59,802 nucleotides of DNA from IMG/VR virus record IMGVR_UViG_3300034167_000343, positions 1-59,802 of that record; one strand, written 5' to 3'. A program made the translations under genes and the position numbers. The notes beneath the pieces are model-generated. The model was not told where the DNA came from. It worked only from the letters and a program-made list of their open reading frames with translations, and ran no database searches. The first letter of the stretch is position 1; each line of letters begins with the position of its first letter. This document shows, piece after piece, positions 4,162 to 48,036 of this stretch. This DNA comes from a virus (taxonomy: Duplodnaviria > Caudoviricetes).

Positions 4162-4430
4162 CAGAAGTCGACCTCGACTTCGTTGTTGGTGCGCTTCGGG
4201 GCACTGCGCTGAGGTGCGCTGCCCTGCTCGCGGGGCGCGTACTTCGGATCCGGCAGGCGCAGGACGCCGGACTTGAACGGGTTTCCGGCCTTGGACACGC
4301 GGTTCCAGATGGCGACTTCGTACTTGGTGCCGTCCGGGAACTCGACGGTGCCGGTCTCGTGTGGCGCCTTCTCGTTCGTGCGGCGGTTGTTCTCGAAGAT
4401 CGTGATCTCGATTTGGTTGTTGTAGGTCAT
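4161..4430 (-). CDS. Putative ssDNA-binding protein (small OB-fold, DUF736-like)
   Basis: NEKAP..TG and YEVAIW motifs; flexible tail ending EVEVDF; lies between ERF and the exonuclease. Confidence 0.65.
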   Translation of the reverse strand: MTYNNQIEITIFENNRRTNEKAPHETGTVEFPDGTKYEVAIWNRVSKAGNPFKSGVLRLPDPKYAPREQGSAPQRSAPKRTNNEVEVDF

Positions 4431-4432
4431 GT

Positions 4433-5020
4433 TCAGGACTCCTTGGTTTGGGCGGCCTTCTTTTGAAGGCGGGCGATGACCTCCTGGACCTTGGCCAGGG
4501 GCAGTTGGTTGATGGAGCTGATGCTGTAGGCGCCAGCGATCGCCTCCAGGGGCATCTGCACCGAGGCGGCAAGGCTGGTGATGGCCGCCAGTTCGTTCGG
4601 TCCGGCCAGCGCTTCCTGGCGCTTCTGAGGGGGCGCGTTGCGCACCGCCGCCGTCGCCGCATTTGCATCGTCGTCTTCGGGCGCGATCCCGCAGGCCGCC
4701 ATGAGCGAGTACCTGCGCGCATAGGTCAGTGCTGACCCGTATCCCTGAGGGTCGTGCTTTGCGGCGGGCACGTACAGGCGACCGGCGCTGAAGACCTCGC
4801 CGGATTCATGCACGAAGGTGGTCTCCACGACCACGCCCGTGTCGGACTCGTGGGTCTGCTGGATGAGCGCGATGCCGCTGTCGTTGAGCGCGTCGATGAC
4901 GGCCTCAACACAGGCCGCCAGATCGGCGTAGCGGCTCTTGAAGTGCGGGTTCGAGCTGGTCTTGAGTGCCGGGCCAAAAGCCTTCTGCGCACGGACCAGG
5001 GCCGCCGAGATCTCTTTCAT
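4433..5020 (-). CDS. erf: ERF-family single-strand annealing protein
   Basis: NPHFKSRYADL and GSALTYARRYSL...EDDDA signature; AGGAGG RBS before ATG 5020. Confidence 0.93.
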   Translation of the reverse strand: MKEISAALVRAQKAFGPALKTSSNPHFKSRYADLAACVEAVIDALNDSGIALIQQTHESDTGVVVETTFVHESGEVFSAGRLYVPAAKHDPQGYGSALTYARRYSLMAACGIAPEDDDANAATAAVRNAPPQKRQEALAGPNELAAITSLAASVQMPLEAIAGAYSISSINQLPLAKVQEVIARLQKKAAQTKES

Positions 5021-29822: not shown

Positions 29823-30662
29823 GTGCTGTTCGTACCCGGCAACAGCTGGAACTTCGCGCTCTCCAACGTGAGCGCGACGCGGCCAGCGGCCGGCCGGGGC
29901 ACGGTCATCACCCCGGGCACGGCCCCCACCAAGGGCGCTTGGGCGCAGGCGCTGACCGGCGCCAACAAGTCCGCCGAGACCTTCGGCGTCCTGATCCACA
30001 TCAACAACGGAGCGACGGCGGCGGCCACCCGCAACCTGCATGTCGATGTCGGCATCGATGCGGCGGGCGGCACCAGCTACACGGTGGTCATTCCCGACCT
30101 GTTGGGGGGTCATGCCGCGCCGGCCACTATCGGTGGCATCTTCTACTACTTCCCGCTTTACATCCCCGCAGGTGCCTCGGTGGCAGTGCGAGCCGCGGGC
30201 AACGTGACCACGGCCTTCAACGTCAGCGTCACGGTGTTTGGCAAGCCGCGTCGGCCGGACTCGGTCATGGCGGGCCAGAAGGTGGTGGCGTTCGGCGCCA
30301 CAGCAGCGACTGCAACGGGAACCACTGTGACGGCGGGTACCACTGCCGAGGGTGCCTATGTCCAGCTTGGTACGGCCACCACGTTCCCGATCTGGTGGTG
30401 GCAGTGCGGCCTGACCTGTGTGGACACGACGATGACGGCCAACGCGCACGCCATTGACATTGCCACGGGCGACGCCACGACCAAGGATCTCGTCATTCAG
30501 GATGTGCTGTCGGTCTGGACCGCCAGTGAGCAGATCACAGCGCTGCCGGCGGTGGTCCCAGCTTTTGACCGTACCAACGCGGGTGCTTTGGTCTACGGGC
30601 GGGTGCAGTGTTCCGGCACGGCGGATACCGCGCTGTCCATGATGGCCTACGGGCTGGGGTAA
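29823..30662 (+). CDS. Putative virion beta-sandwich protein (two related halves)
   Basis: Repeated G-T-x-V/I-T-x-G...G-A-W/Y segments; GAGG RBS + GTG. Confidence 0.75.
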   Translation: MLFVPGNSWNFALSNVSATRPAAGRGTVITPGTAPTKGAWAQALTGANKSAETFGVLIHINNGATAAATRNLHVDVGIDAAGGTSYTVVIPDLLGGHAAPATIGGIFYYFPLYIPAGASVAVRAAGNVTTAFNVSVTVFGKPRRPDSVMAGQKVVAFGATAATATGTTVTAGTTAEGAYVQLGTATTFPIWWWQCGLTCVDTTMTANAHAIDIATGDATTKDLVIQDVLSVWTASEQITALPAVVPAFDRTNAGALVYGRVQCSGTADTALSMMAYGLG

Positions 30663-31182: not shown

Positions 31183-32643
31183 ATGAGCTGGGGCTTTACC
31201 CCCCTGCTGCCGGGCGGGGCCCAGCAACTGGCAGGCATAGGTATAGCCGCGTCTGCGGCCTCAGCAACAACGGCCACCGCCGCCCTTACCACTTTGGTGG
31301 TCGGCGCAGAGCTTATTGACACTGCGGTTGGCACAAACACCGTTACCTTCGATCCCTGGGTACAGGCGGGCGACGTAGCAATCTGTATGGCGTTCCGGGA
31401 TGGCAGCGCGGTGCCGCCATCAGAACCTGCGGGACAGTTCGGGACTGCTATTACGGTCAACCTGCCGTCTAGCCAAAACTGGAATACAGTTGCCTACGGG
31501 AACAATAAGTTCGTAGCAGTAACTTTCCCTTCTATTTCCGCCGCCAGCCCTGACGGTGTAACTTGGACTCAGGGCACCCTGCCGACAAACCAGTCGGCCG
31601 CTGTCGGCTACGGCAACGGTTTATTCATATCACTTTGCTCAGGCAGCACTTCAGCTACTAGCACTGACGGTATAACGTGGACTCCGCGCACCATGCCGTC
31701 GGATTCACCTTGGGCGGAATTTGCCTACGGCAATGGCGTATTCGTAGCGATATGCTTTGGAACCGCCGAAGCCGCCACCAGCCTTGACGGCATAACGTGG
31801 AGCCCCCGCACCATGCCGTCTTCCCAAAACTGGGTTGACATTAAGTACGGTAACGGCGTGTTTTTGGCAATAGCCCTTGCCTCCAACGTAGCCGCCACCA
31901 GCCTCGACGGCATAACGTGGACTCCGCGCACCCTTCCGGCCACGCGAGACTGGACTTCACTCAGCTACGGCAACGGCGTTTTTGTGGCGATGGCCGGTGG
32001 CGCAAGTTCCGGTGCTGCCAGTAGCCCCGACGGTGCTGCTTGGACTACACGCACATTGCCGTCGAGCGGCGATTGGACTGGCCTTGCTTACGGCGGGGGC
32101 AGCTTCTTAGCAACATGCTTCAACAGCACCGCAGCCGCCACCAGCCCTGACGGTTTCACTTGGACCGCATTTACGCTGCCGGCCACCCAGTTTTGGAACG
32201 AAATCGCCTACGGCGATGGTGCTTTTGTGGTGGTATCTGGTAGCGCCATCACAGGGCTGAAAATTCCAATAGCCTCTGTCACAACCCTTGACGCCAGCGG
32301 GTCGGGCACGAGTTCCTCGCGACTGGTCTACCAAAAGCTCACGGTAGGCGGCGCTCAATCTATCGGCCCCTTCACCAACGCCACCTCAGTCGCGGCGGCG
32401 GTCTACCGGGGGCTCGATCCTGTCAACCCTGTACCGGGTTTTTCATTGGTTTCGGGGACGGGGACTATTGTCACTTTGCCTGCTGACACAACCGGGGCCA
32501 CTTCGTCGGTTGTCAGCTTTGCGGGGCACCAGAGCACCAACGTGACTTTCCCGGCGAGCCAAGCTGGTGTAGTCCGCCGCGCCCAGCAGATTGACGCTGT
32601 AGACGCCATCGTGGTCTATGACTCGGCGGGCGTGGCCGTATGA
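31183..32643 (+). CDS. Beta-propeller (Asp-box/BNR-like repeat) virion protein
   Basis: About 6-7 repeats of AYGNG.FVA...ATS.DGITWT..TLP. Confidence 0.85.
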   Translation: MSWGFTPLLPGGAQQLAGIGIAASAASATTATAALTTLVVGAELIDTAVGTNTVTFDPWVQAGDVAICMAFRDGSAVPPSEPAGQFGTAITVNLPSSQNWNTVAYGNNKFVAVTFPSISAASPDGVTWTQGTLPTNQSAAVGYGNGLFISLCSGSTSATSTDGITWTPRTMPSDSPWAEFAYGNGVFVAICFGTAEAATSLDGITWSPRTMPSSQNWVDIKYGNGVFLAIALASNVAATSLDGITWTPRTLPATRDWTSLSYGNGVFVAMAGGASSGAASSPDGAAWTTRTLPSSGDWTGLAYGGGSFLATCFNSTAAATSPDGFTWTAFTLPATQFWNEIAYGDGAFVVVSGSAITGLKIPIASVTTLDASGSGTSSSRLVYQKLTVGGAQSIGPFTNATSVAAAVYRGLDPVNPVPGFSLVSGTGTIVTLPADTTGATSSVVSFAGHQSTNVTFPASQAGVVRRAQQIDAVDAIVVYDSAGVAV

Positions 32644-35051
32644 GCTTTACAGCGGTCAACCTCAACGTAGGCGGTACCTCGGCGGAGTGGCGCGCCTATT
32701 CGGTTGAACTGGTGCCCTTGTCGAGCGGCATCGCAGGTTCTGCCGTCAGCGTCACCACGGTAACGGCTACGCTGACCTCGACGGCAACTCCGGCGCAACT
32801 GGCCTCATCCGTCTCGGCATCGACGGCCACGACAGCCGCGCTCACCGCCTCGATCCGGTTCGCCGCCACCGCAACGGCCGCATCCACGACCACGGCTGCG
32901 CTCACCACCTCGATCCGCTTCACGGCCAGCATCAGCGCCCTGAGCAGCGCCTTGAGCGCCGCGCTGACGACGCAGATCAAGCTCGCTGCCAACGTCGTGG
33001 GTGTGGTGGCGACCGGCGCCGACCTCGCAACCCAGATCAGGGTCCAGACCTCGGTCGCTGCGCAGACCACGACCACCGCTGGGCTGACGACCACCATCAG
33101 GCTGGCGGCGTCGGCCACGGCGCAGACGAATCGATTACTGGCATCGCTGAACACGGGCATCCCGCTCACTGCTTCAGTCGGTGCCAGCGCCGTTTCTACA
33201 GCGGCATTGCAGACCGGCCAGCGGTTTGCCAGCGCGGTTGCGGCATCAGTACAGACCACGGCGGGGCTATCGACCGCTATTCAGCTTGCCGGTTCAGTAT
33301 CGGCTGCGGCAACGGCCACTGCGGCTATTGCCACCTCGGCGGCGCTTGCTGGCTCAGCGGCGGCAGTAACGACATCGACCGCCAGCCTCACGACTGACAT
33401 CCTGCTGTCCGGCTCAGTCGCTGCCGTCACATCGACGACCGCTGGGCTGAACACAGCCATTCAACTGGCCAGCCCTGTTGCGTCTGTCACGACCACGTCT
33501 GCCGGTCTGACGGCCTCGATTCTTCTCGCGGGCTCGGTTGCTGCTGCTACATCGACGACCGCCGGGTTGTCCACGGTAATCACGCTTGCCAGCGCGGGGG
33601 CAGCGGTCACGACGACAACGGCCAGCCTGACGACGGCGATTCGTTTGATCGGCTCGGCGGCCAGCGTATCCACCGCTGACGCTTCCCTGGCCACCGCTAT
33701 TCGGTTGGCAAGCTCCGTCGTGGCCGAGGCGGCAGCGGCTGCCGAGATAAATGTAGCGGCGCGCTTTACCGCTCAAGCTCAGTCGCAGACCTCGACCGAT
33801 GCAGCCGTCACGACGGCCATCCGCCTCAACGCCACCACCACATTCCTGGCCAGCGTTACGGAGGCGACGCTCTCCGCCCAGACGCGATTCGCAGCCACAG
33901 TCACTGGCGCGGCGTCAGCGGCAGCAGACCTACAGACCGCGATCACCCTGGTCGCGGCAACGTCGGCCCAGACCAACACGGTTTTGGCGTCGCTGAACAC
34001 AGGCATTCCGCTTGTTGCGTCAGCTGAGGCCAGTGCGACTTCTGCGGCTGACCTACAGACCTCGATCACTCCGGCTGCGACTGCTTCGGCTCAGGTCACC
34101 GCCACTGCGGCCCTACAGACCTCGATCACCCTGGCGGCGTCGGCTTTGGTTCAGGCCACTGCCGCCGCAGACCTACAGACCGCGATTGCCCTGGCTGCGG
34201 GCGCTGCTGCACAGACCACTGCTGCCGCAGGCCTACAGACCGATATCACTCTGGCTGCGTCGGTCGAGGCCGCTGCAAATTCTGCCGCCAGCCTACAGAC
34301 CTCGATCACTCTGGCTGCGGATGTTTCGGTCCAGACCATCGCGGCTGCGGATCTAGACACCGCCATCACCCTGGTCGCGGATGTTTCGGCGCAGACGAAT
34401 AATGTCCTTGCCTCGCTGAACACGGGCATCCCGTTACTCGCCAGTGTTTCGGGCCAGACCACCGCTGCGGCTGACCTAGAGACAGCGATAACCCTGGCGG
34501 CGGCTGCTTCGGCGCAAACCGTCAGCGCGGCGGACCTAAGCGCAGCCCAGAGGTTCGTCAGTTCGTCGAGCGCCGTCACGAATGCGTCGGCGGATCTTCT
34601 GGCGGTTATCCGGCTGGCGGGATCCGTGTCGGCGAACAGCGCTGCCGAAGCTGTACTGCTGGTAAGCCCGAGGGTATCTAGCGCTGTCTCTGCGGTCGCA
34701 TCGGCGTCGGCGGATCTTTCTACGAGTCAGAGGCTCTTTGGCGCGGGGCTCTGCGGGGCCTCGACCTCTGCCGGTCTTCTGACTTCGATACGGGTGGGCG
34801 GCTTTGCTGCGGCGGTTGCGTCGGCTGCGGCGACCTTGAGCGTCTATCGCTTCACGGTCGGTGCCTCTTCCGATACCTCCTTCACCGGGGTCAGCCTCCG
34901 GTACATGCTCGCGCCTGCCGATTCGCTGTATTTAAGCGTCCAGGCCGAAGTCTTGGGGTTAACGGTGCCACCGGATACTCTATCGACTCGCCTGCCAGCC
35001 AGTACAAACAGTCTTAGCGTCCCGCCCGAAAACTTAGAGGTATCTGTATGA
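32640..35051 (+). CDS. Ala/Thr/Ser-rich fibre protein with ~20-aa tandem repeats
   Basis: Roughly 35 units of A.LxTxI.LAxSxxA; exact 60-bp DNA periodicity at 34051-34360. Confidence 0.85.
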   Translation: MSFTAVNLNVGGTSAEWRAYSVELVPLSSGIAGSAVSVTTVTATLTSTATPAQLASSVSASTATTAALTASIRFAATATAASTTTAALTTSIRFTASISALSSALSAALTTQIKLAANVVGVVATGADLATQIRVQTSVAAQTTTTAGLTTTIRLAASATAQTNRLLASLNTGIPLTASVGASAVSTAALQTGQRFASAVAASVQTTAGLSTAIQLAGSVSAAATATAAIATSAALAGSAAAVTTSTASLTTDILLSGSVAAVTSTTAGLNTAIQLASPVASVTTTSAGLTASILLAGSVAAATSTTAGLSTVITLASAGAAVTTTTASLTTAIRLIGSAASVSTADASLATAIRLASSVVAEAAAAAEINVAARFTAQAQSQTSTDAAVTTAIRLNATTTFLASVTEATLSAQTRFAATVTGAASAAADLQTAITLVAATSAQTNTVLASLNTGIPLVASAEASATSAADLQTSITPAATASAQVTATAALQTSITLAASALVQATAAADLQTAIALAAGAAAQTTAAAGLQTDITLAASVEAAANSAASLQTSITLAADVSVQTIAAADLDTAITLVADVSAQTNNVLASLNTGIPLLASVSGQTTAAADLETAITLAAAASAQTVSAADLSAAQRFVSSSSAVTNASADLLAVIRLAGSVSANSAAEAVLLVSPRVSSAVSAVASASADLSTSQRLFGAGLCGASTSAGLLTSIRVGGFAAAVASAAATLSVYRFTVGASSDTSFTGVSLRYMLAPADSLYLSVQAEVLGLTVPPDTLSTRLPASTNSLSVPPENLEVSV

Positions 35052-35332
35052 CCACTGTCCTTGGCAAATTCGTCAAGCAACCCGCCGAGATTCTTGATTA
35101 CGACGTGGATTTCACGGACTGGTTTGCGGGGCGGACGGACACCCCTGCGTCTTTCGTGGTCGTTGCTGAGCCCGGCATCACGGTGATCGGCTCAAGCCGA
35201 ACGGGTAATGTCGTCAAAACCATCCTGTCGGGGGGCACCAGCGGCAACAAGTACAAGATATCGGTCTTGCTGACTACGTCCGCCAGTCTGGTCAAAGAGG
35301 CGGATTACGTTGTCGCCGTTAAGGAGGCTTAG
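35048..35332 (+). CDS. Small Ig-like fibre adaptor protein
   Basis: KQP.E.LDYD.DF.DW and LSGG..G..Y motifs. Confidence 0.8.
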   Translation: MTTVLGKFVKQPAEILDYDVDFTDWFAGRTDTPASFVVVAEPGITVIGSSRTGNVVKTILSGGTSGNKYKISVLLTTSASLVKEADYVVAVKEA

Positions 35333-36632: not shown

Positions 36633-38255
36633 ATGCCCGCAATTAATCTCAAAGCCTTCGCGGGCCTCAAGCCAATTCTTGACCCTCTTCTGCTTGAGCA
36701 GACGGATGCGGTCCTGGCTGAGAACACTCGTCTGGTTTCTGGGGCGCTCTCGGCGCTCAAGTCATCGACGACTCTCAGGGCTCTGACGAAGACTGCGCCG
36801 CAGACCATATTTCGTTACGGAAACTCTTCCGTCGAGACGGAGTACTGGCTTGAGTTCCTGGCGGACACCGACGTTATCCGCTCACCCATTGCCGCCGACA
36901 CTTATGGTCGCGCCTACTGGACTGACGGCGGTACGCCGAAGTACGGGCCCAACAGCGCGGTGATCTCCGGCTCCTCATACCCGGGCGCCTCTTACGACCT
37001 GGGCATCCCGGCTCCGGCTGCCGCGCCGACGATCTCATCGTTCACGCCATCCACCGCCTCCTCCTCTGAGACCAGGACCTACGTTTACACGTACGTCTCA
37101 GCCTATGGCGAAGAAGGCCCGCCGAGCGCGGCCTCGGCAACGGCCTCCCTGGACCCCGCCCAGTCTGTCGGAATCAGCGGGATGTCTGCCGGGCCCTCTG
37201 GCGCCTACAACATCGTCACCAAGCGCGTTTATCGCTCCTCGACTGTTGGGGCGTCAGCTCAGTTCCAGTTCGTTGTTGAGATCCCGGTCGCCAACACGAC
37301 GTACACGGACACCAAGGCGCAGTCGAGCCTGGGCGAGATTCTTCCGTCCACGGAGTGGGTTGCCCCGCCCTCCGGATTGAAGGGCCTCAAGGCGCTTTCG
37401 AATGGCGCCGCCATCGGCTTCAAGGACAACACCGCCTATCTCTCAGAGCCCAACCTTCCGCATGCTTGGCCTCACGAGTATTCGATTGAGGACACCATCG
37501 TTGGCATCGGCGTCTTCCGCCAATCAGCCGTACTCCTGACCGCCGGGCGCCCGTACCTGATGTCTGGTGCGGACCCTGCGGCGATGAGCACTGAGCGCCT
37601 TGAGCTGGCCCAGGCGTGCGTCTCGAAAAGATCCATCGTCGAGACCGGGGACGGCGTGCTCTACGCAAGCCCTGACGGGATCGTGAGCATCAGCTCCGGC
37701 GGCATGGACGTTCTTACCAAGGGGATCCTCACCAGGGCGCAATGGCAGGCTTACAACCCGTCAAGCATGCAGGCGGCGGTCCATGAAAGCCGGTATCACG
37801 TCCTCTACCAAATTGACGGTGGTTCTCGCGGCTGGCTGATCTTTGACTTCTCTGGTCAGGGGGCAACCTTCTCCACCTCCAACCTGAACGCCTCCACGGC
37901 CGTAACGGCCTTGTACTCAGACAACCGAACCGACACCCTCTACATGGCTCAAGGGACGAACATCGTCCGCTTTGATGCTGGATCCCCTCTCACGTACACG
38001 TGGCGCTCGAAGACCTTCCGCGCGCCCTTCGTCATGAACTTTGGCAAGGCCCAAGTTGTCTCCTCGGCGTACCCGGTCACGTTCAAGCTGTACGGTGACG
38101 GGGCGCTGAGGTTCACGAAGTCGGTATCGGACGGGAACCTGTTTCACCTTCCATCCGGTTACCGGGCGCTCGACTACCAAATCGAGCTGGCCGGCACATC
38201 CGACATCACTCAAGTGTCCGTCGCAACATCCGCTGTGGAGCTGCGGGGCCTATGA
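36633..38255 (+). CDS. Tail nozzle / tubular protein B-like
   Basis: R.YVYTYVS.YGEEG.PS, SEP.LPHAWP, YASPDG and WRSK.F motifs; beta-propeller-like. Confidence 0.8.
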   Translation: MPAINLKAFAGLKPILDPLLLEQTDAVLAENTRLVSGALSALKSSTTLRALTKTAPQTIFRYGNSSVETEYWLEFLADTDVIRSPIAADTYGRAYWTDGGTPKYGPNSAVISGSSYPGASYDLGIPAPAAAPTISSFTPSTASSSETRTYVYTYVSAYGEEGPPSAASATASLDPAQSVGISGMSAGPSGAYNIVTKRVYRSSTVGASAQFQFVVEIPVANTTYTDTKAQSSLGEILPSTEWVAPPSGLKGLKALSNGAAIGFKDNTAYLSEPNLPHAWPHEYSIEDTIVGIGVFRQSAVLLTAGRPYLMSGADPAAMSTERLELAQACVSKRSIVETGDGVLYASPDGIVSISSGGMDVLTKGILTRAQWQAYNPSSMQAAVHESRYHVLYQIDGGSRGWLIFDFSGQGATFSTSNLNASTAVTALYSDNRTDTLYMAQGTNIVRFDAGSPLTYTWRSKTFRAPFVMNFGKAQVVSSAYPVTFKLYGDGALRFTKSVSDGNLFHLPSGYRALDYQIELAGTSDITQVSVATSAVELRGL

Positions 38256-39658
38256 GCGAAACAAAGGTTCCTGCAATCCCTGCGCCGACAGATTCAAACC
38301 TCCGGGATGTTGCGCGGGCGGTGAAGGGGGTTCTTGACGTTCGGGAGGGTTTGGTTGGTGACCCTCTGGACAGCAACGTCACCTTCAGGGACCTTGTTGA
38401 CGGCGGGCTTGTCACGCCCGTTGTTGTCGGCAGAGGCGGAGGCTCATCCTCCATTTCGGTACTTCCTGCCCCAGGCCTTTCGTCTGGCTCATCGACAGAG
38501 CCTGACTTCACGCCGCCTCCCGCGCCGACCGGCTTCACTGTGACAGCCGGGCTCGCAGTAATCCTCCTTGGGTGGGACTCGCCGACGTACGGCAATCATG
38601 CCTACACAGAGATCTGGCGCGCCGAGACCAATGTCATCGGCAGTGCCATTCGCATCGCCACGGTGCAGCCGTTTCTGTACACGGACAACGTGGGGTCCAC
38701 GGGCATCACAAGGTACTACTGGATCAGGCACGTTTCAACCGCCGACATTGCCGGCCCCTACAACGCAACCGGCGGCACTTCCGCCACGACCGGGAAGATC
38801 GGCAATGTCGACCTCGGGCCCCTCATCGTCGAGGCTGGCAATCTGGCCAGCGGCGCAGTCAGTGCTTCCAAGCTGGCCTCTGATGCCGTTTCTGCCGGTG
38901 TGTTCGCGGCAGGCTACGAGCCGCTGTCGATCGCCACGTCTGTGCCCGCCACAAAGACCACCAGCACGGTGTTCAACAGCACGGACGGCAAGCTCTACCG
39001 CTGGGACGGAAGCGCCTATGTGGCGAGCGTCCCCTCCCTTGACATCAGCGGACTGATAGCGGCCTCGCAGATCGACGAGAAGGGGCTGGACATCCTCGAC
39101 CTGTACGGCAACTCGGTGTTCTCCCACACGGGCGCCGTCAGCACCAGCGCCTACGTCACGGTCGGGGGTGACAACGTCACCTTGTCGTCAGTCGCGGCCA
39201 ACGCACTGGTCCCATCGCTCAACTACGTCGGCACCTACACGACCGCGCCGACATCGGCCACGCTCGGGGCCAACTGGAAGCAGAACTCGGTCTACAAGAA
39301 TTCGACCGACGGCAACTCTTACGTCCTCACCGGGACCCCCCTTGGGTGGGTGGTGTATCTGGCTGATGGTCTGGCTTTCCTCCTGACCGTTGAGTCGACC
39401 AACGGCACCACTTTCCGTGTCGGTAGCAGCACCAACACGACGCTCAAGGGGCGCCTGTTCAAGAACGGCGCGGAGGTCACCGACGTGACGCCGGCCGGGT
39501 GGTTTCGCTGGCGGCGGGTGTCTGCAATACCGCAAGCCTCACCCAACGACGACACCACATGGAACAACCTGTATGTGACGGGCTACAAGCAGGTCTCGAT
39601 CAACGTCGATGACGTGTACGCCCGTGCCACGTTCTTCTGCGACATCGTCAGTACATAG
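38252..39658 (+). CDS. Tail fibre base protein with FN3 and C-terminal Ig-like domain
   Basis: N-terminal PAIP...GDPLD..VT.RDL attachment motif; FN3-like TEIWR...YYWIR. Confidence 0.8.
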   Translation: MSETKVPAIPAPTDSNLRDVARAVKGVLDVREGLVGDPLDSNVTFRDLVDGGLVTPVVVGRGGGSSSISVLPAPGLSSGSSTEPDFTPPPAPTGFTVTAGLAVILLGWDSPTYGNHAYTEIWRAETNVIGSAIRIATVQPFLYTDNVGSTGITRYYWIRHVSTADIAGPYNATGGTSATTGKIGNVDLGPLIVEAGNLASGAVSASKLASDAVSAGVFAAGYEPLSIATSVPATKTTSTVFNSTDGKLYRWDGSAYVASVPSLDISGLIAASQIDEKGLDILDLYGNSVFSHTGAVSTSAYVTVGGDNVTLSSVAANALVPSLNYVGTYTTAPTSATLGANWKQNSVYKNSTDGNSYVLTGTPLGWVVYLADGLAFLLTVESTNGTTFRVGSSTNTTLKGRLFKNGAEVTDVTPAGWFRWRRVSAIPQASPNDDTTWNNLYVTGYKQVSINVDDVYARATFFCDIVST

Positions 39659-39669
39659 GGAGCTAGACC

Positions 39670-41175
39670 ATGCCAATCGTCTCAACTGGCCAAATCACCA
39701 TCGTCGACACCAACGATGCGAGGACCATCACCGCAGCGCTCGTCGCATCATCTGGCACCCAACAGGTGTACACGAAGGATGAGTCGACCCTCAGTTACAC
39801 GCCGAGTTGGATCACCTCCCCGCTCACGCTGACGCCGCAAATCTCGGTGGGCGGGTTGACGTCCGCGCTGGCTTGGGGTGCGTTGACCAACAAGACGTTT
39901 GCGCTGACCGCTGGCGGCACTGCACTGACCACGGCGTCGACCTCAACCAGCTTCGTCAACAACGCGGACGTGGCGGTCAGCACGCCCTTTACCGTGACCC
40001 ATGCCGCCAACGGGTCGGCCACTGCGTCTACGTTTGTCCTTACGGGCAACCTTAAAGACACGGTCGCCACGTTTACGCTGTTCTTCGACGCCGACTTCAC
40101 CGACCCGGCGACGCTGCTGGTGACCCACATCACCTGTCAGATCACGCTCAATTCGATGAAGACGGGCACCAATGCGGTGTTCATCACCATCCGTGGCCAG
40201 ACCAACATCGAAGAAGCCACGGGTGCGACCAAAAACAACATCGCTGTAGCGGCGGACTTGGTCCGGTCGGGCGGCGTCGACACAACGGGCCTCACCTACA
40301 AGTGGTACGAGGCGGGGGGCAGCACGCAGATCACGACCTCCCTGCCGAGTGTTGCAACCGAGTACGGCCTGAAGACCACGACGGCTGGCACCGTTCCGAC
40401 CGGGGCCCCGGGTGAGTTGAACGTCAACATCCCGACGGCGGCTGGCAACGCCTTCAACACCCTCGTCATCAACGAAAGCGCGGTGGCCGACATCGGCATC
40501 TACAAGGTCGAGATCACGGACGCCGACGCCAAGACCTACACCCAGTACTTCACCATCTACGACATCAGCGATCCCTACGATGTGAACGTCTTGTCGTCGA
40601 CCGGGGACAAGCTCCAGAACGGGCAAGGCAGCACAACACTCACGCCCGAGGTGTACTACGGCGCCACCAAGGTCACCCCCCTGACCGGCTGGTCATTCAG
40701 CTACTACCTGTACGACAAGAACGGCAAGCGCGCTGGCTTCGTCGACACCAGCAAGGTCAGTGTGGCGGGCGGTGCCCCGATCACATCCCACACAACCGGG
40801 GCCAGCGCGACGTTCACGTTCAGCGGAGCGGCCGTCATCTTCCCGCTCGACTCCCTCATCAAGTGCGTCAAGCCCAACGGGGACGCCTTCTACTACGAGG
40901 TGGTTGGCAACGGCACGACCGCCGTGAACACGGTGGCCATCAAGACGCCGACCGTCACGACGTGGCTCAACTTCACGGACTTCCCGTCGCCATCCGCCAG
41001 CACCGACTTCGTCGGCGGAAAGCTTTACGGCTGCACGGGCGGCTCGGGGGCCACTGCCGGGACGCTGGCGACCAACGGGCTCAGGACGGTGTCCGTCACG
41101 CCTTGGCAGATCACAGTCACGGGTGATGAGATCGACGTCAAGGGCCGCATCCTCGTTGAAGCCAACCGTCCGTAA
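39670..41175 (+). CDS. Multi-Ig-like-domain fibre protein
   Basis: N-terminal STGQITIVD motif; repeated Y.W beta-sandwich pattern; Thr-rich. Confidence 0.75.
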   Translation: MPIVSTGQITIVDTNDARTITAALVASSGTQQVYTKDESTLSYTPSWITSPLTLTPQISVGGLTSALAWGALTNKTFALTAGGTALTTASTSTSFVNNADVAVSTPFTVTHAANGSATASTFVLTGNLKDTVATFTLFFDADFTDPATLLVTHITCQITLNSMKTGTNAVFITIRGQTNIEEATGATKNNIAVAADLVRSGGVDTTGLTYKWYEAGGSTQITTSLPSVATEYGLKTTTAGTVPTGAPGELNVNIPTAAGNAFNTLVINESAVADIGIYKVEITDADAKTYTQYFTIYDISDPYDVNVLSSTGDKLQNGQGSTTLTPEVYYGATKVTPLTGWSFSYYLYDKNGKRAGFVDTSKVSVAGGAPITSHTTGASATFTFSGAAVIFPLDSLIKCVKPNGDAFYYEVVGNGTTAVNTVAIKTPTVTTWLNFTDFPSPSASTDFVGGKLYGCTGGSGATAGTLATNGLRTVSVTPWQITVTGDEIDVKGRILVEANRP

Positions 41176-41187
41176 GGAGCGACGCCT

Positions 41188-44100
41188 GTGCCGACCCTTG
41201 TCTCGACTGGCCAGATCACCATCGTTGATGTCAACGATGGCTCCAACGCCTACCTGACGAACAACAGCGCCGTGCTCCCTGCCGATGCGGCGGGCACGGT
41301 GTCGTCCTATACCGGCGCGGAGACCTTCTTCAAGGTCGTTGAGGCCAATGTCGACACCACCACCAACTGGTCGTTCTACGTCTCGGCGACGGGTGGTGGG
41401 GTGGCGTACCGGGACAGTGACGATGCGGCGGACAGGACGGGGACGGGGGCATCCGGGTACCTTGGCGGCACGAACCTCGTCTCGTACAGCGACTACAACG
41501 CCGCGACTTGGGTCAACAACTTCCCGGCCGGGGCTTCCATCACAACGGGCATCGCCGACCCATTTGGTGGCACGGCAGCCGTCCGTCTAACATGCAACGG
41601 CACGACCAACGCCCTGCTGCGGATCACGATCCCGTCGTTCACGCCGAACGGCACAACCGCCTATACCCTCAGCTTCTACTGCCGTCGCGTCAGTGGCACT
41701 GGGACGGCGAGTTGCGATCTTAACGATGGAGCCCCGTCGACTAGCAACTACGCAACGCAATTGGTGACCGGCAGCTACGTCCGAGTTCAGATTACTGGGA
41801 CGCCCACCGCCACCGCCAAGGCGCTCGTTGATCTGTTCGGGGACAACACGACAACACAGGTGCTGGACTTTGCTGGCGTTCAGCTTGAGCCAACGACGAC
41901 GGCTTCTGAGTTGACCCGGACAATCGGCACCGCCGCCAGCGGCACCCGTGGCTACCTGAAGATCACCTCGCTGACTCAGGACCTGTCCTATCTGGACATC
42001 ACGGCCTCGAAGATCGGCGGGCAGTCGTTCACGCAGCGGTACAGCGTGGCACGGGCCAAGACGGGCGTCACCGGCACCCGGGGCACCATCACCACCTCGG
42101 CAGCCACAGCAGGCGTTGTGTGGTCCGACGCTGAAGCCAACACGGCCATCTCCACAGCAGGCGGTGGTTCTCCCTTGGCGGGAGACGTGGTCACCCTGTA
42201 CAACAGCGCCGCATCCTTCTCGCAGACGCGGGTGCGGACGAGCGGTGGCTTGTGGGCAGCGCTGGCGGCGTTCTTCGGCGGGGATGTGCTGGTGGATGGC
42301 ACGCTGGGTGCGGTGAAGCTCGCAGCCAACTCGGTCACGGCCGGCAAGATCGCGGCGGGGGCAATCACGACCTCCAAGCTGCTGGTTGCACCGGCTTCTT
42401 TGTGCCCGTCGCCATATTTTGAAGACACGGCATGGTGGACCGCCACCCTCTACGACGCAACGGGCTGGTACTTTGAGTCTGGAACTTCCTTCACGGGCAC
42501 TTCGACGCAGGCCGCCCTGTGGAGCGCCCACCCCACAAACATCCCCGGGACTGCGCGGAAGCACCTATGGAGCGGCAATGTCGCGGCCCCTGCGGTTGGG
42601 ACCGTCGTTCGATTGCGCGCAAGGGTTCGCAACGACAGTAATCAGGTCATTTACGTTGCCGCTCGGTTCTACACCGCAGCCGGTGCGAACATCTCTGACT
42701 TGAACTTGGTTAGCGCTGCGAGTTCGGGGCAGCAAGACCTAACCGCCCAACTCGTTGTCCCAAGTAATTCCGCGTTCATCAGATTTATTGTTTACAACGA
42801 AGGCGTCACGACCTACTCCGGCGCCGCTGCTGTATCTGCGGTCATGTTGAACACCGCCGCTGGCGCTGACCTCATCGTCGACGGCGCCATCACCGCAGCC
42901 AAGATTGCCGCCAACACCATCACGGCAGGGCAGATCGCGGCGAACACCATCACCGCGTCCAAGCTCCTGCTGGCGGACCTGTCCAACATAGCCCCGGACG
43001 CCGACATGGCGGACAGCAATGCTTGGTCTGCGCCGACAGCATGGGAGACGCCGCCGAGCGCGTCGTGGAGAGGTTCCCGTGTGGCCCGCCTTGACGCGGC
43101 CGCGAGCGCCTATAAAGTGCTTGAAGGTAAGGTCTTCCCGGTGGAGGCGGGGGCCGCGCTTCACTTCAGCTTTCAAGGTCAGGTGCTCGCTGGAGCCGGG
43201 ACTTTTGTCGGACGGCTCCAGTTGTCGGCAGCGACTGACATGAGCACGCCAACCTACCTAGGGTCCACCAGCAGCGTCTCGACGACTCTTGTGACATCCG
43301 CCGGGAACTTCACCGTTCCTGCGGGCATGAAGTACGCCCGTGTCCAGCTTTTCAAGAACAACGATGCCGCCACTTCTGTGCGTGTGGGTGGTGTTGTGGT
43401 TAGGCGAGCCGCCAATGCCGAAATGATCGTCGACGGTTCCATCAGTGCCGCCAAGATTTCAGCAGGGGCCATCACCACGGACAAGCTGCTGGTCACCGGG
43501 CGCGGCAAGGCCCTCAACGACGACCCGACGTTTCAGGATGCGGCGGCGTGGAGTCAGGGCGGCGGGTCCGGGTCTTTCGCGCTGGTTACGGAGCCAACTT
43601 CGCCTGTCGGTACCAAGGTTCTCCGCGCTACGAACGAAGTTCAGTTCAGAGCTCGCAGTTTCCCCATCACAGCCGGTACCCGCTACAAGGTCACGATGTG
43701 GGCGCAGCAGACCTCTGGCACTGGAACGATGTATCTGAGGTTGTATTGCTACAACGCAGCGGGCACTCTCATCAACTACGTAGCGACCACGGTCTCTCCG
43801 GGCTCCGGCACGCTTGAGGGCATTGACGTACCTGCAACGTGGACCAAATACATCGGCTACGTAGACGCGGGCGCGGCAACGGTCACTGGGCAACTCATCG
43901 TCCATGTCAACTGGGGCGGGGGTGGTGGCGTCACCGACGTTGCTGACTGCCGTGTCGAGGAGTACATCGGTGCAGACCTGATCGTTGACGGCGCCATCAC
44001 GGCGGGCAAGCTCGCGGCGGGCTCCATCGCTGTCGGTACTGCTGCCATCACCGACGGCGCCATCGTGAACGCGATGATTGGCGACTTGACCGCCGACAAG

Positions 44101-45420
44101 ATCACGTCCAGCTATACGACCTCGGTCGATTTAGAGGCGGCGACGTTCTTCGGGTCAGAGTTCTATATCGGCGGAACAGCAACCTATGAGTACAACTTTG
44201 CTGGCCGACCTACGGTCAAGAGCGGTATCGCCAGCATAGCCAGCCCGAACATCGCGCTCAAGTCCACGGGCGCCGAGTTCAACGTCGGGTACTTCAAGAT
44301 CAAGAACGGGGCGGGCGCCACTGCCGTCGATGTATTTGAAGTCTCCGGTGGCAACGTCCGCATCAAGCAAGGCTACTTTCAGGGTCTCGCAGTCACTGAT
44401 GCCATCGGCAACATCATCCTGGCCTCGGGCTCTCCGCTTGCGTCGTCGAACATCACAGCGGCAGCAGGATGGTTGAACAGCAACATTTCGGTTGACGCAA
44501 CTGGCAACCTCGTCGGCGTAGGCGGTAACTACACAAGGCTCGGCAAGAACCTCCTCGATGCTGGCAAGTGGGTGTTTGGCTCATCTGGTGCGCAGACTGG
44601 ATTTAGCCCGAATACAGTCAGCTCCGGCGGCTCTAATTCGATTATTTACGAGGTGCTGCCCGACGGGTCTCGCGGTATTTTGTGGCGGGCCATAAGCGGA
44701 TCAGCAACCACTGCCAACGGTGAAGGCGGCTGGAACACCACGACGATTTACATCGACCACACCAAGATGTATCGCTTTTCGGTGTGGATCAGGTGCTCAG
44801 CAGGAGCCACCGGAAACAACTACCTTGGCCCCGGTGAAAGCACGGTCAACGATATTGGGGGCACGGTCAACAGCAACCCGTACTTCCACAGCGGGACCAG
44901 AGCCGGCCAGACTCAAGGCGTGTGGCACTTGTTCGTAGGCTTTGTACTGCCGTCAACTTACAGCGGCGCCCAGCAAAGCATGAGCGGCATCTACAGCGCC
45001 CTCAGTGGGCAGCTCGTAGGCTCCGGCGCAGACTTCCGCTGGGTCAGTGGCCAGACCACGACATGGCACCGCGCCTATCAGTACTACACGACGGCTGCGG
45101 GGACGACGCAAGACTTCTTTGACCCGCGTGTGGAACTGTGCGACGGCACAGAGCCTTCGCTTGGCGCCTTGCTGGCTATGGGATCGCCGAGTGCCCGCAA
45201 CCCCATCACATCCTCCAACGTCTCCACCTATATTGCCAGTGCGGCGATTGGTAGCGCGCAGATCGGGAGCTTGGCTGCCGCCAATATATCCGTGGGAACT
45301 TTAAGTAATGTCATTAACAACAGCGCAACTTCGGGCGAGCGCGTGGTCATTAACAGCAATCAGATATTGGTTTATGACGCGGCCGGGAACATTAGGGTGA
45401 AGTTAGGAAACTTGGCGTAA
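41188..45420 (+). CDS. Large tail fibre / receptor-binding protein with several CBM-like domains
   Basis: Repeated LIVDGAITA.K.AA stalk motifs separating jelly-roll-like domains; C-terminal VYD.....RVKLG. Confidence 0.85.
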   Translation: MPTLVSTGQITIVDVNDGSNAYLTNNSAVLPADAAGTVSSYTGAETFFKVVEANVDTTTNWSFYVSATGGGVAYRDSDDAADRTGTGASGYLGGTNLVSYSDYNAATWVNNFPAGASITTGIADPFGGTAAVRLTCNGTTNALLRITIPSFTPNGTTAYTLSFYCRRVSGTGTASCDLNDGAPSTSNYATQLVTGSYVRVQITGTPTATAKALVDLFGDNTTTQVLDFAGVQLEPTTTASELTRTIGTAASGTRGYLKITSLTQDLSYLDITASKIGGQSFTQRYSVARAKTGVTGTRGTITTSAATAGVVWSDAEANTAISTAGGGSPLAGDVVTLYNSAASFSQTRVRTSGGLWAALAAFFGGDVLVDGTLGAVKLAANSVTAGKIAAGAITTSKLLVAPASLCPSPYFEDTAWWTATLYDATGWYFESGTSFTGTSTQAALWSAHPTNIPGTARKHLWSGNVAAPAVGTVVRLRARVRNDSNQVIYVAARFYTAAGANISDLNLVSAASSGQQDLTAQLVVPSNSAFIRFIVYNEGVTTYSGAAAVSAVMLNTAAGADLIVDGAITAAKIAANTITAGQIAANTITASKLLLADLSNIAPDADMADSNAWSAPTAWETPPSASWRGSRVARLDAAASAYKVLEGKVFPVEAGAALHFSFQGQVLAGAGTFVGRLQLSAATDMSTPTYLGSTSSVSTTLVTSAGNFTVPAGMKYARVQLFKNNDAATSVRVGGVVVRRAANAEMIVDGSISAAKISAGAITTDKLLVTGRGKALNDDPTFQDAAAWSQGGGSGSFALVTEPTSPVGTKVLRATNEVQFRARSFPITAGTRYKVTMWAQQTSGTGTMYLRLYCYNAAGTLINYVATTVSPGSGTLEGIDVPATWTKYIGYVDAGAATVTGQLIVHVNWGGGGGVTDVADCRVEEYIGADLIVDGAITAGKLAAGSIAVGTAAITDGAIVNAMIGDLTADKITSSYTTSVDLEAATFFGSEFYIGGTATYEYNFAGRPTVKSGIASIASPNIALKSTGAEFNVGYFKIKNGAGATAVDVFEVSGGNVRIKQGYFQGLAVTDAIGNIILASGSPLASSNITAAAGWLNSNISVDATGNLVGVGGNYTRLGKNLLDAGKWVFGSSGAQTGFSPNTVSSGGSNSIIYEVLPDGSRGILWRAISGSATTANGEGGWNTTTIYIDHTKMYRFSVWIRCSAGATGNNYLGPGESTVNDIGGTVNSNPYFHSGTRAGQTQGVWHLFVGFVLPSTYSGAQQSMSGIYSALSGQLVGSGADFRWVSGQTTTWHRAYQYYTTAAGTTQDFFDPRVELCDGTEPSLGALLAMGSPSARNPITSSNVSTYIASAAIGSAQIGSLAAANISVGTLSNVINNSATSGERVVINSNQILVYDAAGNIRVKLGNLA

Positions 45421-45740
45421 TGGCTTTCGGGATCGACGTATTTGATAGCTCCGGCAACCGTACGCTGGAGGGGCTGGATAGGTTGTACAGATTATATTCT
45501 GTATATTCCTACACCTTCGCTTCGGACGCCTCAGCCTTCCAAACCTTGACTATTTCATGCCCACCGTTAAGCACCGACGGCAAGTGGAAGGCTTATCTTG
45601 GGGCAAGCAACCACGATGTAGAAATATTCAATGGGTATTTTATAGTAAAACTAATGGCGGTAAGGTACATTTACACGACAACCCCAACAAGTTTAGATCC
45701 CACATCATTCCCCGGCGATGCTTATATATTTCAAATCTAA
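45420..45740 (+). CDS. Tail-tip associated protein (low GC)
   Basis: MAFGI.VFD..G N-terminal motif; TAATG overlap. Confidence 0.7.
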   Translation: MAFGIDVFDSSGNRTLEGLDRLYRLYSVYSYTFASDASAFQTLTISCPPLSTDGKWKAYLGASNHDVEIFNGYFIVKLMAVRYIYTTTPTSLDPTSFPGDAYIFQI

Positions 45741-45749
45741 GGGGCGAAG

Positions 45750-46463
45750 ATGGCTGTAGGGTTTAGAGCGGTTAATGCGGACAATATTGTTCAAATTGAT
45801 GAAACATACAAAAATTTGACCATCATTGCTGAAGGCACAGGCACGACCGGCACCACCATAACTTTCCCGGCGCAAACATTTATACCGCTGGTGGCTATAG
45901 GTGTGACTGGGGTTGGCAGTAGGTGGTCTTTGTCTTCAGTAACGACATCAAATTTTAGTTTGTTTGACCGTTCAGGTTCATTTTCACCTACTTCTTTTAC
46001 GTTCCCGTACAAAGTATTCGGCCTCAATCCAAACGCGCTAACCGGAAATCCTTACGGTCTGGAAATTCGGGACGCCAGCAACGCCCTGATATTTAATAGT
46101 AACTACAAATACTTCAAGACACGTTACGTACAAGACGTGCAGTTTTCTAATTTTACCAATGCCAGCACCAGTTTCCCGATTGTTCCCATGTACAGTCAAA
46201 CTATTAGCGGATTAACGGGATCGCCGTATGTTATCGCCAATGGTTTGGGTGGTATCCCTGTTTATAAATACTGGGGCACTACGGCCAACTGGGGCAACAA
46301 TTACGAGCCTAACGGGCCCTATGGAAGTTATTCCTCTTCATTTATGTCAGTTGGTCTAGAGTCGGCCTCCATGATAAGGTTTTATCCATACTTCCAGTTT
46401 TGGGGCGGCGTGCAAAATAAGAGCAGGTTTCAACCATCTTTTAAGCTCATATTGGGGTACTAA
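45750..46463 (+). CDS. Tail-tip associated protein (low GC)
   Basis: G....N......QID..Y.NL and YGLEIRD.....IFNS motifs. Confidence 0.75.
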   Translation: MAVGFRAVNADNIVQIDETYKNLTIIAEGTGTTGTTITFPAQTFIPLVAIGVTGVGSRWSLSSVTTSNFSLFDRSGSFSPTSFTFPYKVFGLNPNALTGNPYGLEIRDASNALIFNSNYKYFKTRYVQDVQFSNFTNASTSFPIVPMYSQTISGLTGSPYVIANGLGGIPVYKYWGTTANWGNNYEPNGPYGSYSSSFMSVGLESASMIRFYPYFQFWGGVQNKSRFQPSFKLILGY

Positions 46464-47071
46464 TGAAAAGAGCCGCCGTAAACCAAGCAGGTAGACCGCT
46501 TTATGTGGCATGGCTTGCCGTTCTTGAGGATGTGCCCCTCAATACCACCGACAATGTTTTTATTGAGCCGCCCGCAGACTGGGACGACGTCAAGACTTTG
46601 GCAAGCTGGTACGTCGATGGCGGGTGGCTGGAGCGCCCGGATACCGTGCCCTCCTCGTGGATCTACGACGCCGAAGCCCAGCAGTGGGTAGACCCGCTGA
46701 CTGTTCAGGACTACCGAAACATACGCTGGACCGCCGTCAAGCAGGCCCGCGACACCGCCATCAACGCGCCCCTGCCCACCCCCTACGGCAGCTTCGACGC
46801 GGACCCGCGCAGCCAGAAGAACATCACCGACGCCATCGCGCTGCTGCAAGCACTGGAAGCCTCGGGCACGCCGCAGACCATCGACTTCACGTTGTCGGAC
46901 AACTCGGTGGCGGTGCTGACAACGGTGCAGATGGTGCAGGTTGGGCTGCTGCTCGGCGCCCGGACACAGGAGGCCTATGCCACCGCCCGGCAACTCCGCA
47001 CTGACATCGAGGCTGCCGGTACGCAGGAAGAGGTTGAGGCGGTGGTATGGCCGGTGGACACCCCCTCCTAG
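46463..47071 (+). CDS. DUF4376-like tail fibre assembly protein
   Basis: K..RD, FDAD..SQ..I and FTL.DN motifs. Confidence 0.85.
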   Translation: MKRAAVNQAGRPLYVAWLAVLEDVPLNTTDNVFIEPPADWDDVKTLASWYVDGGWLERPDTVPSSWIYDAEAQQWVDPLTVQDYRNIRWTAVKQARDTAINAPLPTPYGSFDADPRSQKNITDAIALLQALEASGTPQTIDFTLSDNSVAVLTTVQMVQVGLLLGARTQEAYATARQLRTDIEAAGTQEEVEAVVWPVDTPS

Positions 47072-47092
47072 AATCAGACAACTCATCGAGAG

Positions 47093-47692
47093 ATGTCAAT
47101 GCCGGGGTTCTTAAAGGTCATCGAGGGCGTGAACATGGAGCCTCTCCAGCGGGCCTTGGAGACGCATCGGCACCTGTTTGGCCGTATTCCGCTTCGAGCT
47201 GCTCCGCCGGGTTCCCCGCACCGGGACATGACGGACATCTGGGTCCGCTACAACGACATCAAGAACTACGACCCGAACCCTGACAGTTTCTGCACCAGCG
47301 AGTCAGATTTCAACGCAGAACATGATTCGACCTGGTATCCGTCTTATTACGCGCTGCCCGAGCTGAAGCCGATCCTGTTCGGCATGATGGGCGCCCTGGA
47401 TGGTGAGCGCCTGGGCGGGATCCTCATCACGAAGCTGCCGCCCGGCAAGGAGATCCTCCCGCACGTCGACGGCGGCTGGCACGCGGCCTATTACGAGAAG
47501 TTCTACGTTGCGGTAAAGACGCCGCCCGAGAGCTTCTTCGGCTTTGACGACGGCGAGATCCACGCCAATGACGGCGACATCTACTGGTTTGACAACAGCG
47601 TACCGCACTGGGTCAAGAACCAGACCGAGGAGGATCGGATCTCCATGATCGTCTGCATCAAGACGGACAAGTTCAAGGGGTGCCGAGGATGA
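47093..47692 (+). CDS. 2OG-Fe(II) oxygenase, aspartyl/asparaginyl beta-hydroxylase-like
   Basis: I.PHVD (HxD), WFDN...HWV.N and R motifs of the DSBH fold. Confidence 0.88.
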   Translation: MSMPGFLKVIEGVNMEPLQRALETHRHLFGRIPLRAAPPGSPHRDMTDIWVRYNDIKNYDPNPDSFCTSESDFNAEHDSTWYPSYYALPELKPILFGMMGALDGERLGGILITKLPPGKEILPHVDGGWHAAYYEKFYVAVKTPPESFFGFDDGEIHANDGDIYWFDNSVPHWVKNQTEEDRISMIVCIKTDKFKGCRG

Positions 47693-48036
47693 CTATCGCG
47701 GAAACCTTTGCAGAGAACCTTGGCCGGTTCGACGTTGACCTTGGTATCCAGCACCACTTTTCCTCCGGGGTGTACGCGAAAGAGATTCACATTCCGGCGG
47801 GATGCGTAATTGGCAGTCACTCTCACAGGTTCGATCACCTGAGCCTGCTCGCATCCGGTGAAGTTGTTGTCAGAACCGAAAGCAAAAGCAGCCGCTACAC
47901 GGCGCCATCCTGCGTGGCCATCGAGGCCGGCGCCCATCACGAAATCACAGCCATAACCGACACCGTCTGGTACTGTATTCACGCCACCAGCGTGACAGAC
48001 CCTGCGCTTGTCGATGAAGAATTGATTGGAGTTTGA
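47689..48036 (+). CDS. Cupin domain protein
   Basis: HHFS.GVYAKE, H.H..DH, G..H and WYCIH motifs. Confidence 0.85.
   Translation: MTIAETFAENLGRFDVDLGIQHHFSSGVYAKEIHIPAGCVIGSHSHRFDHLSLLASGEVVVRTESKSSRYTAPSCVAIEAGAHHEITAITDTVWYCIHATSVTDPALVDEELIGV

Follow-up and report, generated by a model that had tools for sequence, protein, structure and literature searches.

A candidate split Ig-like joint connecting three tail fibre proteins of a 60-kb phage

Chaperone-usher pili (Fim, Pap, Caf1, Saf) are built from subunits in which the missing last strand of an immunoglobulin (Ig)-like domain is supplied by the N-terminal extension of the next subunit, paired antiparallel to strand F, an arrangement that holds the subunits together head to tail, very stably though without covalent bonds, in the order base, shaft, tip. 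Here we describe a putative joint of comparable design in a phage tail fibre, encoded by three consecutive genes (B, C and D) in the virus record IMGVR_UViG_3300034167_000343, whose 59,802 nucleotides (nt; 59.8 kb), analysed over their full length, are called the window throughout. The fibre unit spans 38252 to 45420; an earlier note on this DNA had proposed pilus-like chaining of the same three proteins within 39360-42063, an interval that takes in both gene junctions but falls short of the whole unit.

Among phages, the nearest published case that we found is the joint between BppU and BppA of phage Tuc2009, in which, according to the passages on the crystal structure, residues 296-321 of BppU complete a β-sheet of the small β-sandwich domain 2 of BppA and the composite resembles a titin Ig domain (PMC4742702). 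Phage T5 offers a second point of reference, since its structural account describes three independent strings of fibronectin type III (FNIII) domains, contributed by pb3 and pb4, that merge into the trimeric β-helix of the pb4 spike (PMC10038345). Two further reports were rejected as descriptions of the same joint: the ‘chain-like fibre’ of Pseudomonas podophage A1002 differs, being presented in the relevant parts of the article as small fibre dimers on a nozzle-rope protein (PMC13730344), and the fibres treated in the corresponding parts of the PhiXacm4-11 preprint are of the unrelated T7 gp17 type. A full-text search that left aside most subscription journals and supplements found no published description of this split-Ig joint in phages.

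Plugs, sockets and gene boundaries

B, C and D lie on the plus strand, as do all features located within them, and are separated by 11 nt and 12 nt. Protein B (38252..39658, 468 amino acids (aa)) is the putative fibre base, with a tail-fibre-type N-terminal part (residues 23-197 matched PHROG tail-fibre families with E 1e-24 to 1e-16, and residues 373-467 were also matched) and a C-terminal acceptor domain, here termed a socket; it matched no Pfam family and no PDB sequence at E up to 0.1. Protein C (39670..41175, 501 aa) is the putative extender, consisting of a donor peptide or plug, a string of Ig-like domains and a second socket, while protein D (41188..45420, 1410 aa) also begins with a plug and is the putative tip fibre. 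C and D are separate genes, not one frameshifted gene, because each is preceded by a Shine-Dalgarno sequence of its own and has a separate start codon: GGGAG (39658..39662), read from the sequence, overlaps the stop codon of B and lies 7 nt 5′ of the ATG of C at 39670, and AGGAG (41175..41179), likewise read from the sequence, lies 8 nt 5′ of the GTG of D at 41188. Joining of the genes by frameshift or read-through was thus ruled out; starts and stops are also conserved in homologues.

Protein C begins MPIVSTGQITIVDTND and protein D begins (V/M)PTLVSTGQITIVDVND. When the two were compared using BLASTP, only residues 1-16 of C and 1-17 of D aligned (14/17 identical, E 8e-4) and all other segments gave E > 1, bearing out the earlier observation that these proteins start almost alike; the peptides quoted at that time are all present in the sequence. 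B and C share no sequence similarity. We place plug 1 at residues 2-16 of C (PIVSTGQITIVDTND, 39673..39717), on conservation and a low predicted local distance difference test score (pLDDT), and plug 2 at residues 2-17 of D (PTLVSTGQITIVDVND, 41191..41238), on its identity with the start of C. Among the 422 open reading frames (ORFs) of ≥50 aa that the two strands of the window contain, a loose form of the donor pattern is confined to two sites, residue 6 in C and residue 7 in D.

In an alignment of 55 C homologues, with identity down to ~50%, plug residues G7, Q8, T10, D13, N15 and D16 are invariant (55/55), and both ends of C are better conserved than the middle, as expected of contact surfaces. 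An AlphaFold2 model of the C monomer, built on the same alignment, had a mean pLDDT of 85.6 and showed all-β tandem domains, with residues 1-16 below 50 (37 for residues 1-10 and 56 for residues 11-20): the peptide was left unplaced and did not pack against its own first domain, an outcome that the earlier note would have taken as a refutation. Strong selection on a plug that the monomer model leaves without a place counts in favour of a joint. Plugs of the C type always read TGQ...D-x-N-D-A, while those of the D type vary (SGD, TGV, SGE, VGQ, TAQ and others, then G or Y), and this difference suggests that the two sockets place different constraints on their plugs.

As a separate observation, an invariant D-x-N-D follows each plug directly (39706-39717 and 41227-41238). 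It resembles DxNDN, the calcium-binding linker between cadherin repeats, and structural matches of C include protocadherins and a calcium-dependent RTX adhesin; by this analogy, calcium may stiffen the joint.

Socket 1 occupies residues 361-467 of B (39332..39652; E 1.7e-49 against profile A2), a ~105-residue Ig-like domain with no G strand that stops just after the F strand, one residue before the end of the protein (...ARATFFCDIVST-stop). Profile A2, built from 47 socket domains, was searched against 1.84 billion cluster representatives and matched 2494 clusters at E ≤ 1e-3, 1371 at E ≤ 1e-10 and 198 at E ≤ 1e-30. A socket domain lies ≤12 residues from the C-terminus in 149 of the best 150 matching proteins, which range from 121 to 5508 aa, and none of these 150 starts with the plug pattern; judged by sequence, the socket is a widespread terminal module. 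Alignment A5 sets 24 split socket ends beside three uncut proteins: every split protein ends 2-8 residues past the F strand, where the uncut ones enter a plug-like strand. By alignment, B, whose last domain the earlier note had also read as stopping after the F strand, and 149/150 relatives end at this distance from it. Against the PDB (E up to 5), profile A2 gave spurious matches only (E ≥ 0.5), and sequence searches of the PDB found no solved structure containing the socket domain, C or a C-like protein from a Firmicute phage.

Protein C matched phrog_3267, ‘tail protein’ (E 6e-43). Metagenomic protein collections contain 286 proteins homologous to it at E ≤ 1e-3, and the best 120 of these are 372-515 aa long. 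Foldseek matched its model to tandem Ig-like chains, with the RTX adhesin extender 6xi1, titin and Hoc of phages among the best matches and protocadherins also present. Within the model, strand E134-144 is followed by E151-164 and E275-283 by E289-298, so that each internal strand singled out previously does close its domain after an F-like strand. The last modelled strand, E493-499, is also F-like, with nothing beyond it (...VKGRILVEANRP-stop), in agreement with the claim that the last domain of C stops at this point.

Socket 2 appears to be interrupted. Its first half, comprising strands A to C, covers residues 302-354 (40573..40731; profile A2 matches residues 296-337, E 4.9e-7), with modelled strands E303-310, E321-330 and E342-348; its second half, comprising strands E and F, covers residues 479-501 (41104..41172, ...WQITVTGDEIDVKGRILVEANRP), with strands E481-484 and E493-499. 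G485, D489, K491, R500 and P501 are invariant in the 55 homologues, and residues 355-478 are read as a domain inserted within the socket. In the shorter C-like proteins of Firmicute phages the socket domain is contiguous, without the large insertion of this phage, and ends ...DADVDVKSTFQVEIE-stop, to which the end of C is probably equivalent. On the strand pattern of the model and the comparison with these shorter proteins, the last domain of C is read as a socket of the same type as that of B.

Uncut relatives and gene order in related loci

Uncut socket domains, in which a plug-like strand follows the F strand in the same chain, occur in proteins P0121, P0224, P0173, P0182 and P0261 and in an ORF of locus L059. 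Among the best 150 matches to profile A2, 13 proteins hold 15 internal socket copies, all of which continue beyond the F strand. A short loop and a plug-like segment follow in P0121 (both copies), P0173, P0182, P0214, P0224, P0234 and the second copy of P0261, as at the junctions of P0224 (...KVKIQCEVYDVIYGERTLVATESITIIDVNDL...) and P0261 (...STFTCTVTVDGISASSQITIYDNTDD...); the remaining copies continue in other ways. P0121 carries B-, C- and D-like parts with both junctions in a single chain of 1671 aa. The L059 ORF (1240 aa, on a 153-kb Bacillus-type phage contig) joins C and D in one chain: residues 5-353 align with an entire 362-aa C-like protein of locus L054, as far as the final residue of that protein (51% identity, E 2e-117), and residues 355-390 correspond to the stretch 4-39 in the protein encoded next in L054 (50% identity, E 3e-6). 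Each of these two fusions contains exactly one C unit. The fused forms were reached through the socket profile; among 8000 candidates, no longer fused relative of C was found, a null result of little weight.

In P0224, P0173 and P0182 (541-569 aa), a donor-like strand at the start is followed by an uncut domain of the socket type, complete with its G strand, by a stem and by a terminal socket lacking that strand; these proteins look like adaptor links for longer chains.

An AlphaFold2 model of residues 1-174 of P0224 (mean pLDDT 85.2) places an F strand at 104-113, a two-residue turn and a plug-like G strand at 116-126 (pLDDT 90-95), while the donor-like N-terminus of the same protein (residues 8-21), whose socket was not part of the construct, scored 38-48. 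P0224 thus provides an internal control: a peptide of this kind is ordered if its socket belongs to the same chain and is otherwise left unplaced. Pairing of the G and F strands is suggested by the hairpin together with the confidence values. Residues 23-131 superpose on whole single domains of Ig-like or macroglobulin type with Z values of 7-8.8, including domain 1 of Hoc (3shs, Z 7.7) and LILRB4 (6k7o, Z 7.3, a 94-residue domain matched over its full length), values that indicate a common fold only, not relatedness. The segment folded as a G strand (RTLVATESITIIDVNDL) is identical to plug 2 at 12/17 positions, counted by eye. Given the uncut versions and the contrast between uncut domain and free peptide in the AlphaFold2 models, the sequences and models support homology between the plugs of C and D and the missing G strand, as well as a position of the gene boundaries between F and G strands.

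Gene order was surveyed in 48 loci sampled through C homologues with a recognised start motif. The ORF upstream of C (261-1420 aa) ends in a socket motif in 47/48 of them, with L050 inspected separately; the socket domain is conserved upstream of every C homologue, in ORFs that are otherwise unrelated. Judged by N-terminal sequences and neighbouring ORFs, they include lambda-J-like tip proteins (L018 and L020) and large tip proteins of siphophage-type loci (L015, L023 and L033); in Firmicute phages (L056), the upstream ORF comes after a long tape-measure-like ORF and a small one. In podophage, siphophage and myophage settings alike, the split is found at the same position in proteins that are otherwise unrelated. 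Downstream of C, the next gene opens with a plug variant in 28/48 loci and differently in 8/48; in 12/48 it is cut off by the contig end or was not found. A single C gene was present per locus examined, and loci L001-L062 contain 59 adjacent pairs of socket and plug genes.

To avoid selecting on the plug, scans were also anchored on the socket. Alignment A6, for the proteobacterial-type set, led to new loci with a plug gene next in L083, L096, L099, L100 and L103; three loci were truncated, L102 had no plug gene next and in L104, matched with 38% identity (E 2e-15), the next gene was ambiguous. With alignment A8, for the Firmicute set, 14 new loci had a clear socket, 11 of them split with a plug gene next, two uncut and one without a plug gene.

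In six weaker Firmicute matches (L124-L129, around 3500-4900), the upstream protein runs 12-17 residues past the F-like strand (...TSFICAFLSADGNDVLASRTF-stop) and the next protein, of 351 aa, begins MANVLAQKTFTVKKVINGK, a candidate for a shifted cut of the joint.

Assembly of the fibre and rival readings

We consider it likely, on indirect evidence from sequence and models, that B, C and D are joined by strand complementation in the order base, extender and tip. What the data show directly is where the domains are split, that plug and G strand are homologous, how far they are conserved and how the genes are ordered; binding, stoichiometry, a trimeric arrangement and any part played by calcium are deduced. 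The three proteins would then be segments of one tail fibre of a GP4-type podophage, with the last domains of B and C, which lack the G strand, as sockets and the first ~16 residues of C and D as plugs. During assembly, each plug would pair antiparallel to the F strand of its socket and complete the β-sandwich, and the invariant D-x-N-D behind it would form a rigid link to the next domain. The product would be a defined chain, with B attached to the tail through its N-terminal part, C providing a string of Ig-like domains and D forming a tip with carbohydrate-binding modules. By analogy with pb3-pb4 of T5, three parallel strings probably merge in the pb4-like spike of D, and three C chains would run between a trimer of B and one of D. 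The order base, extender, tip, already put forward in the earlier note, fits the gene order of the window and of the 28 related loci with a plug gene after C.

Several findings weigh against this reading. Structurally, the case relies on P0224, an uncut and distant homologue to which the rows of alignment A5 are 21-35% identical, and its model was read as strand assignments and pLDDT only. Profile A2 sees only the first half of socket 2, so that the assignment of its E and F strands, like that of the 124-residue insertion, is a matter of interpretation. In the 8/48 loci with a different start, the gene after C encodes a protein of ~400 aa that starts MADNIQVRDASG...; of seven loci of this type inspected downstream, a plug gene came one gene later in four (L015, L018, L020 and L023), and none was found within ~7 kb in L001, L005 and L040. 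The socket-ended gene of L107 has no plug gene after it. The two plugs of the window are, moreover, nearly identical, and sequence alone does not say which plug fits which socket.

This last point can be taken in other ways. The shared peptide could be a common anchor through which C and D compete for, or share, one docking site, for example on B, so that alternative or branched fibres would form instead of a serial B-C-D chain. In their strand parts the two plugs do not differ (STGQITIVD), both sockets belong to one domain family, and other phages have well-known branched systems in which receptor-binding proteins use a common N-terminal anchor. However, there are two sockets for the two plugs, the gene order socket-plug...socket-plug is conserved, the fusions fix a serial order (B-C-D in P0121 and C-D in L059) and the uniformity of C-type plugs beside the variability of D-type plugs suggests that the sockets differ in their constraints; we regard branching as unlikely. 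A little less credible still is a loosely ordered assembly, suggested by the same identity of the plug strands and the single socket family, in which virions would carry a mixture of B-D, B-C-D and B-C-C-D fibres and plug and socket would be a universal standard among phages. If true, fibres of variable length would arise from a fixed gene set, and phages of Gram-positive and Gram-negative hosts, with podo-, sipho- or myophage tails, could swap receptor-binding modules.

The earlier note had gone further and proposed that C polymerises with itself, giving a fibre of adjustable length in which C homopolymers, like a pilus rod, stand between B and D. C does combine plug and socket, its plug differs little from that of D, the presumed partner of the socket of C, and nothing in the sequence rules out C-C pairing. 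The window nevertheless contains exactly two plugs and two sockets, each locus examined has one C gene, and the uncut versions P0121 and L059 hold one C unit with no free plug or socket; C is, besides, already a multi-domain spacer of ~500 aa and no chaperone-like factor was matched (Pfam for eight proteins including B, C and D; PHROG for 26 window proteins). On this indirect evidence we find self-polymerisation, and with it an adjustable length, distinctly improbable, and favour a defined B-C-D chain, given the two plugs and two sockets, the constraints on plug types and the single C unit of the fusions. To the idea that the joint is a scar of gene fission we give very little credence. On this reading the genes were split from one ancestor and their ends kept for folding or translation, with no role in assembly, the proteins being held by other surfaces or not at all; the uncut forms do show that fission or fusion happened. 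Against it, neither a domain that lacks a core strand nor a lone strand of 16 residues is likely to be stable by itself, one split position recurs in proteins whose remaining parts are unrelated, and residues of the plug are invariant.

The tail module and known systems

Behind its plug, protein D has a single Ig-like domain that carries an insertion, followed by a pb4-like spike segment, four units of linker plus β module and a C-terminal part. The pb4-spike-like segment (residues 271-390, 41998..42357) matched Pfam PF24168 PB4_spike (E 3.2e-9, 36.7 bits against a cut-off of 27) and, using phmmer, D matched residues 554-658 of T5 pb4 in the PDB (7zlv_i, E 2.8e-8); by analogy, this is probably the site where three D chains merge into a trimer. 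The linker motif occurs four times (near residues 376, 556, 745 and 925), each time with a β module after it, one of which is a carbohydrate-binding module (residues 782-871, 43531..43800; Pfam PF02018 CBM_4_9, E 2.6e-8, 34.8 bits against a cut-off of 25.9).

At its other end, near the start of the next gene (45340-45480), D terminates in ...ILVYDAAGNIRVKLGNLA, and D-like proteins of very different length (in L018 and L026) end alike, in RVKIGNLAAAVS, LRVKLGNLEA and VLRVHLGDLTT. The gene after D (45420-45740, 106 aa) begins MAFGIDVFDSSGNRTLEG, and the ~400-aa proteins that follow C in eight loci (such as L001, 8500-9714) begin MADNIQVRDASGTLLT. Common to these ends and starts is a hairpin-like pattern, hydrophobic-x-V-x-D-x-x-G, which may mark a second type of end-to-end joint or a chaperone contact. 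From 44001 to 48000, across the C-terminal part of D and the next four genes, G+C is 0.54-0.57 against ~0.62 elsewhere, which suggests a recently exchanged receptor-binding cassette.

Directly 5′ of the fibre genes, on the plus strand, protein A (36633..38255) matched chain A, ‘Virion-associated phage protein’, of the six-chain PDB entry 8jov (8jov_A, E 2.2e-73) and phrog_511 (E 5e-152); it is probably a nozzle-type tail protein. A gp77-like fibre-tail adaptor is encoded at 35048..35332, also on the plus strand (Pfam PF23148 Gp77, E 8.1e-17, 62 bits against a cut-off of 27). We took 8JOU and 8JOV as tail entries of phage GP4, on the basis of a figure legend that cites GP4 gp77 as 8JOU. With this adaptor and the homologue of 8jov chain A beside the fibre genes, features of a GP4-type podophage tail are present, and by these matches the fibre genes are part of a tail module of that type. 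A Megablast search of 36633-45420 against GenBank phages gave no match.

Elsewhere in the window, which has ~62% G+C and no tRNA genes, PHROG matches among the 26 proteins scanned included terminase, portal, major head protein, endolysin and DNA primase/helicase, together with other phage structural, lysis and replication families only, and no tail-tube or sheath family. The host is probably a high-GC proteobacterium. In a 2783-aa protein (51109-59460), residues 38-266 matched a virion structural protein family and the C-terminal ~850 residues resemble large PHROG families of unknown function; this is probably a giant internal or ejection protein. An ORF of 803 aa (32640-35051), flanked by unannotated ORFs (29823-30662 and 31183-32643) on one side and by the gp77-like adaptor on the other, is rich in Ala, Ser and Thr over nearly all its length, resembles many imperfect short repeats (...TTAGLTTAIRLAGSV...) and has no match in Pfam or PHROG.

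If the joint works as proposed, a socket of ~100 residues and a plug of 16 residues would make up a portable connector, with which phages attach receptor-binding proteins to very different tail tips; the loci found include lambda-J-like tips, siphophage-type tail-tip proteins (L015, L023 and L033), Firmicute tips and podophage fibres. Such a connector would explain the exchange of fibre modules between distant phages, give annotators a rule for which fibre genes pair and in which order, and offer engineers of phage host range or of protein scaffolds a naturally occurring docking pair that needs no covalent bond.

With chaperone-usher pili, the proposed fibre would have in common an Ig-like domain lacking its last strand, a donor N-terminal extension and the order of base, shaft and tip. 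It has no sequence relation to pilins, and the Pfam search of eight proteins found no pilin, PapD-like or usher family; the term ‘pilus-like’ holds only as an analogy. Assembly here would be cytoplasmic, each joint would be hetero-specific and used once, and the acceptor is the last among several domains of a large protein, not a whole subunit.

The BppU-BppA joint of Tuc2009 is closer in setting, being part of a phage adhesion device in which a β element of one protein completes the β-sandwich of another. The donor there is described as a C-terminal β-hairpin of BppU in an accessory side attachment, unlike the single N-terminal strand and end-to-end connection proposed here, and the passages of the article on the complex do not describe it as a widespread portable module (PMC4742702). 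PDB searches with A1 (E ≤ 1), B (E ≤ 0.1) and A2 (E ≤ 5) returned no phage chain, and so no homology to BppU or BppA. T5 resembles the present locus in that successive proteins contribute Ig-like strings and that D carries a segment like the pb4 spike. As presented in the sections of the T5 article on pb3 and pb4, however, contact between them is made through loops of two complete FNIII domains and the N-terminus of pb4, with no split domain and no separate extender protein corresponding to C (PMC10038345). By the same account, pb4 has three N-terminal FNIII domains of its own, whereas D has one Ig-like domain before its spike and would receive its string from C, through the split joint.

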